Positions 3,379 through 8,898 of a DNA stretch of 35,653 nucleotides are shown piece by piece; the first letter of the stretch is position 1; each line of letters begins with the position of its first letter. The position numbers and the translations under genes were made by a program. Below the pieces are notes generated by a model. That model worked only from the letters and a program-made list of their open reading frames with translations, searched no databases and was not told the DNA's origin. Source of the DNA: Candidatus Tepidifontimicrobium thermophilum (GTDB taxonomy: Bacteria > Sysuimicrobiota > Sysuimicrobiia > Sysuimicrobiales > Sysuimicrobiaceae); NCBI GenBank assembly GCA_031459915.1, contig JAVKHO010000024.1, positions 1 through 35,653 of the forward strand, in the 5' to 3' direction.

Positions 3379-5595
3379 CTACCGCTCCGGACGAGGGCCG
3401 GGCCTGCGCGGCGGGCGGCGCGGGGGTCGGTCCTGGCGCGGACGGTCCGCAGCACCGGCCCCCACGGGAGCTGCTGCCGCTCCGCCGTCGTCGGACACAA
3501 GGCCGCGGCGGGTCAGGTTGATGCGGCCCAGGGAGTCGATCTCCTTCACCCGCACCAGGATCTCGTCGCCCACCTTCACCACGTCCTCCACCTTTTCCAC
3601 CCGGCGGTCCGCCAGCTCCGAGATGTGCACCAGCCCCTCCTTGCCCGGCAGGACCTCCACGAAGGCCCCGAAGTTCACCAGCCGCGTGACCCGGCCCAGG
3701 TAGGTCTGGCCCACCTCCACCTCCCGCACGATGTCCTGGATCATCCGCACCGCCCTCTGGGCGGCCTCCGGGTCCGTGGAGGCGATGATCACGCGGCCGT
3801 CCTGCTCGATGTCGATCTTCACCCCGGTCTCCGACGTGATCTTGTTGATCACCTTCCCGCCGGGACCGATGACCTCCCGGATCTTTTCGGGGTTGATGTG
3901 GAGGGTCAGCAACCGCGGCGCGTACGGGGACAGGTCCGACCGCGGGGCGGGCAGCACCCGCAGCATGGCGTCCAGGATGGCCAGCCGCGCCTGCCGGGCC
4001 TGCTCCAGGGCCTGCCGGAGCACCTCGCGGGTGAGCCCGGGGATCTTGATGTCCATCTGCAGGGCGGTGATCCCCTCCCGGGTGCCGGCCACCTTGAAGT
4101 CCATGTCGCCCATGGCGTCCTCGATGCCCTGGATGTCCGTCAGGATGGCCATGCGGCCGTCCTCACCGGTGATCAGGCCCATGGCGATCCCCGCCACCGG
4201 CGCCTTGATGGGGACGCCCGCGTCCATCAAGGCCAGGGTACTGCCGCACACGGACGCCATGGACGTGGACCCGTTGGACTCCAGGACCTCGGACACCAGC
4301 CGGATGGTGTAGGGGAAGGCCTCCTCCGGAGGGATCATGCGGGCCAGCGCCCGCTCCGCCAGGGCCCCGTGTCCGATCTCGCGGCGGCCGGGGCCGCGCA
4401 GGGGCCGCACCTCGCCCACACTGTAGGGCGGGAACACGTAGTGGTGCATGAACCGCTTGCTCTCCACGATCCCCAGGTCGTCCAGGATCTGCTCGTCCTC
4501 GCCCGTGCCCAGGGTGCACAGGGTGAGGACCTGGGTCTGGCCCCGCTGGAACAGGGCGCTGCCGTGGGTGCGGGGCATGAGGCCCACCTCGATGTACAGG
4601 GGCCGGATCTGCGTGGGCGTCCGGCCGTCGGGCCGCGCGCCCTCCCGCAGGATCATGCGCCGCACCAGCTCCTTCTGCAGGTCCAGGAGGAGGTTGCTGA
4701 CCTCCTGCACCCGGTCGGGGTAGCGCTCCGCGAACTGCTGGGTGACCTCGTCGATGACCCGCTGGGTCTGCGCCTCACGGCTCAGCTTGTCCGGGTGGCG
4801 CAGCGCCGCGTCCAGCCTGGATTCCGCCGCCTCCCGGACCTCCCGGGCCAGGTCGGGGTCAGGGAGCGCCAGGGGCACTTCCCGCTTGGGCTTGCCCGCC
4901 TGTGCCACGAGGTCCCGGATGGCGGCGATCACCTTGCGGCACTCCCCGTGGGCCAGCTCCATGGCCTCCAGCATCTGCTCCTCGGGGACCTCGTCGGCAC
5001 CGCACTCCACCATGATGATCGCGTCGTCGCTGGCCGCCACCACCAGGTCCAGGCGGCTCTCGTTCTCGATCTGCTGCAGGGTGGGGTTCACGACGAACTG
5101 TCCGTCCACCAGTCCGATCCGCACGCAGCCGATGGGGCCCGCCCAGGGGATGTCGGAAAGGCTCAGCGCCGCGGACGCCCCCACCACCGCCGCCACGTCC
5201 GGCGGGTGGACCCGGTCTGCGGAAAGCGCCGTGGCGATGACCTGGACGTCGTTGCGGAACCCCTTGGGGAACAGGGGTCGGATGGGACGGTCCATGAGGC
5301 GCGCGGTGAGGATGGCTTTCTCACCGGGCCGGCCCTCCCGCTTGAAGAAGCCCCCGGGGATCTTGCCCGCGGCGTACAGCCGCTCCTCGAAGTCACACGT
5401 CAGCGGGAAGAAGTCGATCCCTTCCCGGGGCTGGTCCGAGGCGGTGGCGGTGACCAGCACCACGGTCTCCCCGTACCGGACGGTGACCGCGGCGTTGGCC
5501 TGCTTCGCCAGCTTGCCTGTCTCGATGGTCCATTCCTTGCCCCCGACCTCGAAGCGGACGCTCCGGAGTTCGGGTACGCTCCACTCTACCTGCAT
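3379..5595 (-). CDS. pnp: Polyribonucleotide nucleotidyltransferase (PNPase)
   Basis: [47 protein letters not shown], then KH (IGPGGK) and S1 domains. Confidence 0.98.
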
Positions 5596-5745: not shown

Positions 5746-6015
5746 TCACTTCCGCAGTCCCAGCCGCTCCACGACCTCGCGGTAGCGCTGCGGGTCCTCC
5801 CGCTGCAGGTACCGCAGCAGCCGGCGCCGCTGGCCCACCATCTTCAGCAGGCCGCGCTGGGAGTGCAGGTCCTTCCGGTGCACCTTGAGGTGCTCGGACA
5901 GACTGTTGATCCGGTCCGTAAGCAGGGCGACCTGCACCTCTGGGGAGCCCGTGTCCTGAGGGGACCTCTGGAACTCCGCGATCCGCTGCTGCTTGGCCTC
6001 CTTCGTCAGCGCCAC
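5746..6015 (-). CDS. rpsO: 30S ribosomal protein S15
   Basis: [38 protein letters not shown] start at 6015 with GGAGG RBS; 89 aa. Confidence 0.98.
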
Positions 6016-6133: not shown

Positions 6134-7024
6134 TCATCGCCCGCACGCCAGCTCCAACACGCGGCGGTAGGGAACTTCCAGCGCGGCATCCGACACCGCC
6201 TCCCACCGCCCCGCACCGTCTGCGGGAGAGGGGTTGGACCGCACCAGCAGCCGGTACGGGTACCACACCTCCAGGAACTCGGGAACCACCAACCGGCCCA
6301 GGGGCTCTGCCTGCCACGACCCGCGCTCCACGGAGGCCACCTCCGCCACGGCCCGCCACGCGGCCTCCTCAGGGTCCTCCCCCGGCAGCACCGGGGCTTT
6401 GGGCAGCCGGCCGCCCGGGGCCACCAGGACCCTTTCGCCGTACAGGGCGCACCCCACGGCTTCCCGGTGGGCCAGCAGCTCGCACGCCTCCTCCGCACGC
6501 CCCTCCTGCAGCAGCGCCCGGACCCTGGAGCTGCTGACCCGCTGTCCGCCGACCTCCACGGGCGCGCACACCTCCACCGAGAAGCCGAGCTCCCCGCCCA
6601 GCTGACGGAGCAGGTCCGCGTCACCCCGGCGGTCGCGTCCGAACCGGAAGTCGGGGCCGCACACCACCGCCCGCGCACCCAGCCCTCCCAGCAGGACCCT
6701 CCGCACGAAGTCTTCGGGCTCGGTCCGGCGCAGCGTCTCGTCAAACCGCAGGACCAAGGCCGCGTCCACGCCCAGGGTGGCGATGCGCCGGAGCCGCTCC
6801 TGCAGCGGGAGCACGAGGAAGGAGTCGGGCAGGCCAGCCACCACCTGCTGGGGGTGCGGGTGGAACGTGAGCGCCACGCTGCGCCAGCCGCCCTGACGGG
6901 CGCGCTCCACCGCGGTCCCCAGGACCGCCCGGTGCCCCAGGTGGACCCCGTCGAAGACGCCCAGGGCCACGCAGCTCCCCGAGGGGTGCGGCGGGACGTC
7001 CTCCAGCCGGTAGTAGACGTTCAT
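6134..7024 (-). CDS. FAD synthetase (FMN adenylyltransferase) domain fused to a degenerate Nudix-like C-terminal domain; riboflavin kinase domain absent
   Basis: GVFDGVHLGH, TFHPHP, GPDFRFG and VSSSRVR are intact; no GFPTAN kinase motif; C-terminus has LPKAPVLPGEDPEEAAWRAVAEVAS. ATG at 7024 overlaps the truB stop (ATGA). Occupies the ribF position between truB and rpsO. Confidence 0.85.
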   Translation of the reverse strand: MNVYYRLEDVPPHPSGSCVALGVFDGVHLGHRAVLGTAVERARQGGWRSVALTFHPHPQQVVAGLPDSFLVLPLQERLRRIATLGVDAALVLRFDETLRRTEPEDFVRRVLLGGLGARAVVCGPDFRFGRDRRGDADLLRQLGGELGFSVEVCAPVEVGGQRVSSSRVRALLQEGRAEEACELLAHREAVGCALYGERVLVAPGGRLPKAPVLPGEDPEEAAWRAVAEVASVERGSWQAEPLGRLVVPEFLEVWYPYRLLVRSNPSPADGAGRWEAVSDAALEVPYRRVLELACGR

Positions 7025-7923
7025 GAGGAGGTCGGCGGACGGAACACCTTGAGGGGCCGCAGCTTGCCGCCCTCCGCGCGGCCCAGGGCCAGAAGCCGGC
7101 CGTCCTCGTCCAGTACCTTCACCAGGGAGCTGGGGGGCACCTGGAGGTGGGGCGCCACCTTCCACAGGGGCACGGCCTGGCCGTTCACGATGGCCGCCCG
7201 CAGGGTCCCTGTCACCTCCACGTCGGGAACGCCCGGAAGCGCCTCCGCACCCGGCGTCAGCACCCGGTCCAGCCGGCCCGCGGCCACCTCCTCCTCCAGC
7301 TCCTCCAGGGTCACGCTTTCCTCGAGGGTGTACGCGCCCACCCGCGTGCGGACCATGAAGGCCGCGTGTGCCCCGCAGCCCAGCTTCTCGCCCACGTCGT
7401 GGCACAGCTGCCGGACGTACGTGCCCTTGGAGCAGGTGATGTCGAACAGCACCCGCGGCGGCTCGCACCGCAGGACCCGCAGCTCGTAGACGGTGACCTC
7501 CCGGGGCGTCCGGGGGACCTCCACGCCCTCCCGGGCCAGCTCGTACAGCCGGCGGCCTTCGTGGTGCACCGCGGACACCATAGGGGGCAGTTGCTGGATC
7601 CGGCCCACGAAGCTCTCCAGCACCTGCCGGATCCGCGCGCAGTCCCGCACCACCTCCCGCCGTTCCACCACCTCACCGTAAGCGTCGCCGGTGTGGGTGC
7701 TCACCCCCAGGGCCAGCTCCACCCGGTAGCTCTTGTCGGACTCCATGAGGAACTCACTGAGCCGGGTGGCGGACCCCACGCACAGCACCAGCACCCCTGC
7801 GGCGCCCGGGTCCAGGGTGCCCGTGTGGCCGACCCGCCGCGTCCGGAGGATCCGGCGCACGGCGTCCACGCAGTCGTGGGACGTCATGCCCGGCGGCTTC
7901 AGCAGGTTGATGACGCCGTCCAA
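7021..7923 (-). CDS. truB: tRNA pseudouridine(55) synthase
   Basis: KPPGMTSHD, GHTGTLDP, PPMVSA, CSKGTYVR; AGGAGG RBS and TTG start. Confidence 0.97.
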   Translation of the reverse strand: MDGVINLLKPPGMTSHDCVDAVRRILRTRRVGHTGTLDPGAAGVLVLCVGSATRLSEFLMESDKSYRVELALGVSTHTGDAYGEVVERREVVRDCARIRQVLESFVGRIQQLPPMVSAVHHEGRRLYELAREGVEVPRTPREVTVYELRVLRCEPPRVLFDITCSKGTYVRQLCHDVGEKLGCGAHAAFMVRTRVGAYTLEESVTLEELEEEVAAGRLDRVLTPGAEALPGVPDVEVTGTLRAAIVNGQAVPLWKVAPHLQVPPSSLVKVLDEDGRLLALGRAEGGKLRPLKVFRPPTSS

Positions 7924-7932
7924 GGCGCCCTC

Positions 7933-8898
7933 CTATCCGGACCCGGTCTGGACCTCTGCGGCCGCGGCCTGCAGGGTCTGCCGCACCACGTCCTCGAGAT
8001 CCCCGCGGGCTACGAAGCCTGCCGCGCCCAGGTGGCCCCCGCCGCCGAAGCGGGCGGCCACCTCGTTGGCCCGGGCTCCGTCCCGCGCCCGCAGGCTCAC
8101 CTTCACCCGCGACGGCTCCACCTTGAACAGCAGCGCCAGCCGCACGCCGGCGATGGACCGCAGGGTCTCCACGATGTTCTCCGTGTCCTCCCACCGGGCG
8201 CCCGCCTGCTGCAGCATGGCCTCGTCCACCACGCTCCACGCCACCTGCCCGTCCGCGGAAAGCTGCAGGCGGGACAGAGCGAGGCCCAGCAGCCGCACCG
8301 CGGAGGGCGGCCGCGACTCGTAGACGAGCTCGTAGATCCGGTCCGGCCGCGCCCCTCGGCGGACCAGCTCCGCGGCCAGCTCGAACGTCTCGGGCCGCAC
8401 GGAGCTGTACCGGAACGAGCCGGTGTCCGTCAGCAGGCCCGTCATCAGGCACGTGGCCACCGCCTCGTCCACCTCCGCGCCCAGCTCCGCCAGCAGGGCG
8501 TATACCATCTCGCACACGGACGCCGCCTGCGGGTCCTGCCACACCAGGTGGCCGTAGCCCGTGTTGTCCCGGTGGTGGTCCAGGTTCACCAGCACCGGAC
8601 AGGCGGCCAGCACGGGCGCGAAACGGCCCGCGCGCTCCAGGTCCGGGCACTCCAGGGCCACCGCCACGTCGAAGCTGTCGAGCCCCTCCGCCCGGTCCGT
8701 GACCCGCTCCCAGGCCGGGAGGAACCGGTAGACGGCCGGAACACCGTCGGTGCTGGCCACCACCACCCGCTTGCCCGCCCGCTCCAGGGCCAGGCACAGG
8801 GCCAGGGCCCCACCCAGGCAGTCCCCGTCCGGGCTCTCGTGGCAGGCCGCCAGCACCCGGCGCGCCGCGCGCAGGGCGCTAGCCACCGCCGCCTTCAC
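7933..8898 (-). CDS. nrnA: DHH/DHHA1 phosphoesterase (NrnA-like nanoRNase/pAp phosphatase)
   Basis: HESPDGD, LDHH, TDTGSF, SLR and GGGGH motifs; lies between rbfA and truB. Confidence 0.88.
   Translation of the reverse strand: MKAAVASALRAARRVLAACHESPDGDCLGGALALCLALERAGKRVVVASTDGVPAVYRFLPAWERVTDRAEGLDSFDVAVALECPDLERAGRFAPVLAACPVLVNLDHHRDNTGYGHLVWQDPQAASVCEMVYALLAELGAEVDEAVATCLMTGLLTDTGSFRYSSVRPETFELAAELVRRGARPDRIYELVYESRPPSAVRLLGLALSRLQLSADGQVAWSVVDEAMLQQAGARWEDTENIVETLRSIAGVRLALLFKVEPSRVKVSLRARDGARANEVAARFGGGGHLGAAGFVARGDLEDVVRQTLQAAAAEVQTGSG

Follow-up and report, generated by a model that had tools for sequence, protein, structure and literature searches.

An FMN adenylyltransferase with a predicted degenerate Nudix-fold domain in place of the riboflavin kinase module

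The bifunctional FAD synthetase RibF is an essential protein that has been studied as a drug target, and its two-module design, in which an FMN adenylyltransferase (FMNAT) is joined to a riboflavin kinase (RFK), is regarded as the prokaryotic rule. The window analysed here is the 35,653-nucleotide stretch of contig JAVKHO010000024.1 (assembly GCA_031459915.1) from Candidatus Tepidifontimicrobium thermophilum. It contains a gene at 6134..7024 on the minus strand (stop codon 6134-6136) that encodes a FAD synthetase of 296 amino acids (aa) without a recognizable kinase module. This raises the question of what has become of the kinase, and of what the domain that occupies its place might do. The FMNAT module proves to be intact, the kinase is encoded on another contig, and the C-terminal domain is predicted to be a Nudix fold with a degenerate catalytic box.

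The FMNAT module spans residues 1-184 (6473..7024, minus strand), as indicated by Pfam, by alignment to the FAD synthetase (FADS) of C. ammoniagenes and by Foldseek. The Pfam family FAD_syn (PF06574) matches residues 13-167 with an E-value of 4.8e-46 and a score of 156.9 bits, against a cut-off of 27. In a phmmer search of the PDB sequences, residues 1-181 align to residues 1-180 of the C. ammoniagenes enzyme (E 1.2e-28), after which the alignment ends. When the full-length model is submitted to Foldseek, FADS structures rank first (E 4e-17), with about 200 aligned columns (197-209) and about 35% identity. Passages of a study of FADS modules name HxGH and SSSR-type (xSST/SxxR) motifs for their FMNAT part (PMC2972280). 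Both are found here: the nucleotidyltransferase motif H28-L-G-H31 lies at 6932..6943 and the phosphate-binding motif S164-R167 at 6524..6535, both on the minus strand. In an alignment of 28 relatives, none of the 28 departs from H28, G30 and H31 or from S164, S165 and R167. The gene provides the sole FAD_syn match in a genome that is 96% complete. The FMNAT module has kept its motifs and is intact, and this gene is the only FMN adenylyltransferase of the genome.

The flavokinase module, by comparison, is missing. No Pfam match to Flavokinase (PF01687) occurs in the 296-aa protein, even at E<=10. The equivalog models for bifunctional RibF (NCBIfam TIGR00083 and PRK05627) all remain under their cut-off, the best reaching 169.2 bits against 295, and they cover only residues 3-192. 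A six-frame HMM search of the eight loci of the genus, referred to below as g1, with the flavokinase profile returned nothing (all E>1, bits <=0.1). Derivation of the C-terminal domain from a flavokinase was considered and rejected, the hhalign probability being 0.3% against 87 canonical kinase modules and 0.4% against nine kinase remnants from a sister genus. In these alignments the partial protein P0017 (226 aa) was left out, and the kinase-module alignment excluded canonical RibF rows of less than 295 aa. A misassembly of the junction was likewise rejected, as the same join is present in continuous open reading frames (ORFs) in all eight genomes of the genus and in 18 further database proteins.

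An earlier note on this DNA, made from the letters alone, had described intact FMNAT motifs, a gene that had lost its kinase module and no kinase motif in the other ORFs that might betray a frameshift. The first of these observations agrees with the PF06574 match and the invariant HxGH and SSSR motifs, the second with the missing PF01687 match and the hhalign probability of 0.3%, and the third with the empty six-frame search of the eight loci. The same note had stated beforehand what would overturn its reading. One such result was a C-terminal domain modelling as a flavokinase barrel, and the fold that is predicted is Nudix. The other was a misassembly with relatives possessing a normal RibF; the genomes of the genus have the same junction, and normal RibF is seen only in other families of the order.

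Riboflavin kinase is encoded in trans. The 96%-complete genome contains one Flavokinase match, located on contig C3 (locus L001, 1471-2331, plus strand), in a protein of 286 aa that combines Flavokinase (E 2.6e-30) with a YbaK-type tRNA_edit domain (E 2.3e-28). The supposition that FMN would come from a separate kinase has therefore been upheld by the genome search, with the additional feature that this kinase has a YbaK-type domain as fusion partner. The RFK-YbaK fusion is found in 10 loci, with each of the family's three genera represented. No paper naming both riboflavin kinase and YbaK was found in open-access full texts, and the ESM Atlas clusters near the fusion protein are plain kinase clusters only. 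A run of masked bases is present at about 2560-2830 of L001, just downstream of the fusion gene.

The domain that follows the FMNAT module consists of 112 aa (residues 185-296; 6137..6472, minus strand), and the protein ends with it at residue 296. It is predicted with high confidence to adopt a Nudix fold, an alpha/beta/alpha sandwich. AlphaFold2 returned a pLDDT of 93.7 and a pTM of 0.90 for the full-length protein on a 19-sequence family alignment, and a pLDDT of 92.0 and a pTM of 0.86 for the C-domain alone on eight sequences from genomes. The modelled domain begins with three strands and a helix and continues with four strands and a final helix. A VIA-align comparison with 48,161 representative chains yielded 95 chains with Z of at least 8, and the best 50 of these 95, which were inspected, are all Nudix-fold. 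The top four are AraR (5bs6, Z 13.9), NadM-Nudix (2qjo, Z 13.7), Ndx1 (Z 13.4) and NrtR (3gz5, Z 13.3), with the Nudix domain of 2qjo superimposing on the model at an rmsd of 1.9 over 107 residues. Foldseek gave 160 matches to the C-domain at E<=0.001, with TMq values of up to 0.76. Among the matches listed, all are Nudix by title bar two, the MUTYH C-domain and a mitoribosomal chain, both of which are presumably Nudix folds as well. With the full-length model as query, NadM-Nudix 2qjo is matched across both domains (E 6e-10), but with a TM of 0.35 and an rmsd of 18.

The sequence link to Nudix is weaker than the structural one and points in the same direction. A C-domain profile searched against PDB sequences (E<=10) gave 15 matches, 14 of them Nudix, with RppH as the best (E 0.0038) and a UBA domain as the exception. 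Pfam NUDIX (PF00293) is the top match in six of the eight members from genus g1, with a best E of 0.0038, and all of these matches are sub-threshold; the 296-aa protein itself scores 12.0-12.1 bits against a gathering score of 21.1. In the ESM Atlas, 21 of 30 matches are NUDIX clusters. The profile also gives weak matches in 22 genomes from other families of the order (E 1.4e-5 to 0.0096), and the three that were fetched are all bona fide Pfam NUDIX proteins. An hhalign comparison with one bona fide sister-family NUDIX protein reached a probability of 70.9% (E 3.8e-5), and with another 17.7%. Taken together, the AlphaFold2 models (pLDDT 92-94), VIA-align, Foldseek and the PDB profile search bear out the proposal of the earlier note that a Nudix domain stands in place of the kinase. 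The strands that it had guessed (EAVGCALYGERVLV) correspond to model strands 187-195 and 198-202, and its comparisons with NadM-Nudix and NrtR were apt, both being among the four best structural matches.

The box that gives Nudix proteins their name is present in outline only. Residues 210-232 (6329..6397, minus strand) read A210-x5-E216-x7-R224-A-V-A-E228-V-A-S-V232, which keeps the spacing of Gx5Ex7REUxEExGU with the substitutions G to A, RE to RA, EE to EV and G to S. The exact spacing and the degeneracy had both been pointed out from the letters, and the degeneracy extends to all 19 full-length family proteins in which the box was tabulated. The Glu of Gx5E (E216 here) and the Arg (R224 here) are kept in 19 of 19, while the first Gly, the Glu after the Arg and the second Glu of the EE pair are each absent in 19 of 19. 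The first Glu of EE is present in 10 of 19. The HMMER alignment to RppH introduces a one-residue gap after the Arg, and in this shifted register an EE pair can be read in four of the 19 members. In either register, both central positions are without Glu in seven of the 19. The C-domain does not carry a canonical Nudix box with its metal-binding glutamates. Reading this loss as a loss of hydrolysis rests on what is known of Nudix catalysis. Hydrolysis is unlikely as a conserved function, judging from these sequences, because the family shares no conserved cluster of acidic metal-binding residues. The domain would be incapable of Mg-dependent pyrophosphate hydrolysis, as no member has either the RE glutamate or the second EE glutamate, and the one Glu left is itself not conserved.

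The domain is confined to one setting. It is present in eight of eight genomes of genus g1, where the profile matches with E<=6.5e-41, and a single-sequence search also recovers it in all eight. In a collection of 5.8 billion proteins, the C-domain profile found only 10 longer proteins, all of which are FAD_syn proteins of the pseudo-Nudix family, and no C-domain in another architecture. No stand-alone relative of 60-223 aa was found there at E<=1, which is weak evidence as the search needs shared 5-residue words. A phmmer search of 1.84 billion representative proteins missed the family's own members, presumably as other RibF-like proteins stand as representatives of their clusters. Its sole match, P0122 (E 6.1e-7), is a protein of 1324 aa with fragmentary, non-passing Pfam stretches and was taken as a low-complexity chance match. 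In the single-sequence genome search, a match of 39 residues in genome G049 (E 9.9e-4) falls in no start-codon ORF of at least 60 aa and was treated as chance.

Within the genus, the C-domain is maintained by purifying selection, with a constraint looser than that on the N-module: comparison of the four closest genome pairs gives a dN/dS of 0.23-0.35 for the C-domain, as against 0.13-0.21 for the N-module. The residues that are conserved in the C-domain are E188, C192, L207-P208-K209, E216, R224, L251-E252 and W254.

Related lineages show what else can follow the FMNAT module. The comparison covers 94 genomes of the phylum, all of one order, with 12 inside the family and 82 outside it, and the domain tables were compared by eye. 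Normal RibF, with FAD_syn and Flavokinase about 50 bases apart on one strand, is found in 75 of the 82 outside genomes and in none of the 12 inside. Of the other seven outside genomes, one (G093, family f7) has a split arrangement, three (G051, G011 and G071) are fragmentary or partial, and three (G023, G035 and G049) have neither domain. Inside the family, the eight genomes of genus g1 have the Nudix-like domain. The three genomes of genus g3 (loci L031, L032 and L033) have a truncated, motif-less flavokinase remnant of roughly 90 aa without PTAN, which hhalign relates to canonical kinase modules at 96.6% (E 5.1e-10). In the single genome of genus g2 (locus L027; G081, 100% complete), nothing follows the FMNAT module and the protein ends just past the linker. 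The split genome G093 (loci L051 and L052) has an FMNAT-only protein and a stand-alone kinase of 125 aa elsewhere.

Nine canonical RibFs of the order served to root a maximum-likelihood tree of 22 N-modules, in which all split forms fall into one clade (100/99) and, within it, the eight Nudix carriers into one clade (99/94). The tree gives no resolution of the branching order among g2, g3 and g1 plus f7. The simplest reading of this tree is that RibF was split once, in the ancestor of the family and one sister lineage, and that a Nudix-type domain was then acquired once. After the split, the orphaned kinase module would have decayed or been lost, and in genus g1 a small Nudix-type domain would have taken its place.

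As to the source of this domain, a neighbouring Nudix gene was considered as donor and rejected, as in genus g2 rpsO and pnp come directly after the FMNAT gene and no Nudix gene intervenes. In the organism's own genome, the next-best profile match is a Nudix gene on another contig, with an E of only 0.158. The nearest sequence relatives of the C-domain are stand-alone Pfam-NUDIX proteins of about 130 aa from sister families, encoded at L059:348-737 and L061:208-597, both on the minus strand, in genomes G011 and G036. In translation, their Nudix boxes look non-canonical, with RR for RE and KE or RD for EE. These proteins could represent the donor family.

The preferred reading of what the domain does, held with moderate confidence, is that the pseudo-Nudix C-domain is a non-catalytic nucleotide-binding or regulatory module and not a hydrolase. 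FMN from the separate kinase would be adenylylated to FAD by the N-module, and the C-domain would bind an ADP-containing ligand, either FAD itself or an ADP-ribose-like molecule. Such binding could tune FAD synthesis or hold the product. Ligand binding is suggested because the sensor domains of AraR and NrtR are among the best structural matches, because NadM-Nudix has the same domain order, and because a plant FADS with an inactivated pyrophosphatase domain has been modelled, according to passages of PMC9678776, as a non-catalytic FAD binder. The nucleotide- or flavin-sensing role put forward in the earlier note is plausible. A more specific form of this proposal is that a dead Nudix domain was recruited to the vacated kinase spot and there gave the cell's only FAD synthetase either a switch that senses FAD or ADP-ribose or a site that holds the product; this is offered tentatively, as a possibility that falls short of an even chance.

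Several observations weigh against a ligand-binding or regulatory role. Most of the invariant C-domain residues are positions conserved by the Nudix fold itself, so their invariance is not in itself a sign of ligand binding. Relatives do not need the domain for FMNAT function, as the proteins of g2 (G081) and f7 (G093) end after the FMNAT module. With 112 aa it is shorter than most of the Nudix chains that it matches (126-223 aa), so that specificity inserts would find little space. Its sequence diverges faster than that of the N-module, with 29-85% identity across the genus, and its dN/dS approaches 1 in the most distant pairs, which are saturated. Finally, one genome of genus g1 (G090, 94% complete) is without a Flavokinase match yet has the FMNAT-pseudo-Nudix gene; this missing kinase may be an assembly gap.

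The leading alternative is that the pseudo-Nudix domain binds no ligand at all and serves as a structural cap, a solubility module or an oligomerization module, occupying the space beside the FMNAT module that the kinase left vacant. This is rather unlikely. The decayed stump in g3 and the absence of any C-domain in g2 and f7 suggest that the position tolerates any domain or none, the conserved residues are largely fold-defining, and the constraint is relaxed relative to the N-module. The two-domain pTM of 0.90 suggests fixed packing against the FMNAT module, and passages of PMC5428420 describe how the C-module of the C. ammoniagenes enzyme touches the FMNAT module of its neighbour in the oligomer. 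A functionless domain should nevertheless decay or vanish, as it has in the sister lineages, yet this one is kept in all eight genomes with the low dN/dS of the closest pairs. The invariant charged and aromatic residues E188, K209, E252 and W254 are not obviously needed by a plain filler.

Nudix enzymes of other organisms hydrolyse FAD and ADP-ribose. The C-domain might still be an active pyrophosphatase, for example on FAD or ADP-ribose, which relies on non-canonical residues. This would create a FAD synthetase/FAD pyrophosphatase pair like the algal or human FAD synthase, or like NadM-Nudix. Fold and domain order do match NadM-Nudix, an active ADP-ribose pyrophosphatase. E216 and R224 are invariant, a further invariant glutamate (E252) lies on a strand after the helix, and the one-residue HMMER shift restores an EE pair in four of the 19 members. 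Set against this, all 19 lack the Glu after the Arg as well as the second Glu of EE, and the seven members without any central Glu leave no acidic cluster conserved family-wide. All eight genus members also fall under the Pfam NUDIX cut-off (best E 0.0038), and the genome has seven canonical Nudix genes that are available for such chemistry. An active hydrolase is considered improbable.

That the C-terminal part is an extremely diverged or frame-shifted flavokinase remnant, or an assembly artefact, is barely credible: the clear remnant of g3 lies at the same position and MAFFT sets the LPKAPVLP of the pseudo-Nudix family over the PPRKLLP of that remnant, but the idea is already contradicted by the near-zero hhalign probabilities against both flavokinase and the g3 remnant, by the lack of a flavokinase signal in six frames of eight loci, by a predicted fold that is Nudix and not a barrel, and by a junction that recurs in eight independent genome assemblies and in metagenome proteins of several sources.

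The surroundings of the gene are those of an ordinary ribF. Reading along the minus strand, the order in the window is a DHH/DHHA1 phosphoesterase, truB, the FAD synthetase gene, rpsO and pnp, which places the gene in the usual truB-ribF-rpsO-pnp row, after truB as is usual for ribF. The NrnA-like phosphoesterase (7933..8898; Pfam DHH and DHHA1) lies upstream of truB (7021..7923; Pfam TruB_N, E 4.2e-56). Downstream of the FAD synthetase gene, rpsO (5749..6015; Pfam Ribosomal_S15, E 5.1e-39) encodes ribosomal protein S15 and pnp (3379..5595; Pfam RNase_PH, PNPase, KH and S1) polynucleotide phosphorylase. The truB stop codon and the ribF start codon overlap in the four letters ATGA at 7021-7024 of the window, an arrangement that suggests translational coupling of the two genes.

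Among known systems, the protein resembles type I FADS/RibF (C. ammoniagenes 2x0k, T. maritima 1mrz) in its FAD_syn module, its HxGH and SSSR motifs and its place after truB, and differs in that a Nudix-fold domain replaces the riboflavin-kinase barrel. According to passages of Yruela et al. (2010; PMC2972280), FADS type II combines a conserved FMNAT with a shorter C-module that is without PTAN and appears as a non-conserved derivative in RFK-like alignments, and rare genomes have split FMNAT and RFK genes. As in these type II and monofunctional FMNAT enzymes, the PTAN kinase motif is absent here and a separate RFK gene is present. Unlike in type II, as far as those passages describe it, the C-module here has another fold, Nudix, and the separate kinase carries a YbaK-type domain of its own. 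The disappearance of the kinase module is thus an already known kind of change, into which genus g3 fits, because type II FADS and split FMNAT/RFK genomes have been described in that source. A Nudix-fold C-module on a FAD_syn enzyme was not found in open-access full texts, nor in passages of a gene-fusion survey (PMC4921024). The architecture is limited to one uncultured genus whose relatives manage without the domain. One family displays the whole range of outcomes after the break-up of RibF, with the kinase moved and fused to YbaK and the old module decayed, lost or replaced.

NadM-Nudix (Synechocystis 2qjo, Francisella 2qjt and 2r5w) shares the layout of an N-terminal HxGH-type nucleotidyltransferase and a C-terminal Nudix fold. 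Its transferase uses NMN, whereas the N-domain here is FAD_syn and not NMNAT. The entry titles describe its Nudix domain as an active hydrolase, and its Nudix box is intact, in contrast to the degenerate box described above. The relative orientation of its two domains also differs from the model, as the TM of 0.35 and the rmsd of 18 indicate, and a sequence relation beyond superfamily level is undetectable. The regulators NrtR and AraR (3gz5/3gz8 and 5bs6) offer a second parallel, as their Nudix fold binds an effector; 3gz8 is, by its title, a co-crystal with ADP-ribose. The Nudix box of such regulators is often degenerate. Their fusion partner is a winged-helix DNA-binding domain, whereas here it is an enzyme and no winged-helix part is present. 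The VIA-align matches accordingly cover only the Nudix part of these regulators (residues 11-141 of 223 in AraR and 18-152 of 214 in NrtR).

A further parallel lies in eukaryotes. According to passages of Lynch and Roje (2022; PMC9678776), plant AtFADS1 and human FAD synthase each join a FAD synthetase to a FAD pyrophosphatase domain, which in land plants has been inactivated. In AtFADS1, this pyrophosphatase-like domain has lost a key metal-binding residue and is inactive, yet it is retained. Here, too, a FAD-forming enzyme carries a pyrophosphatase-type domain that lacks metal-binding residues and has been kept. As the plant and human enzymes consist of a PAPS-reductase-like FMNAT and a CinA/MoCF-type pyrophosphatase domain, any likeness would be convergent and not homologous. 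The pairing of a FAD-forming enzyme with a probably dead Nudix member echoes NadM-Nudix as well as the FAD synthases of plants and humans. Were FAD or a related nucleotide bound, the domain would be a simple natural pseudoenzyme that regulates cofactor supply. Should it act as a sensing switch, it would be the first case of an NrtR/AraR-like sensor domain attached to an enzyme, and a bacterial equivalent, Nudix-based and convergent, of the pyrophosphatase domain that is inactivated in plant FAD synthetase.

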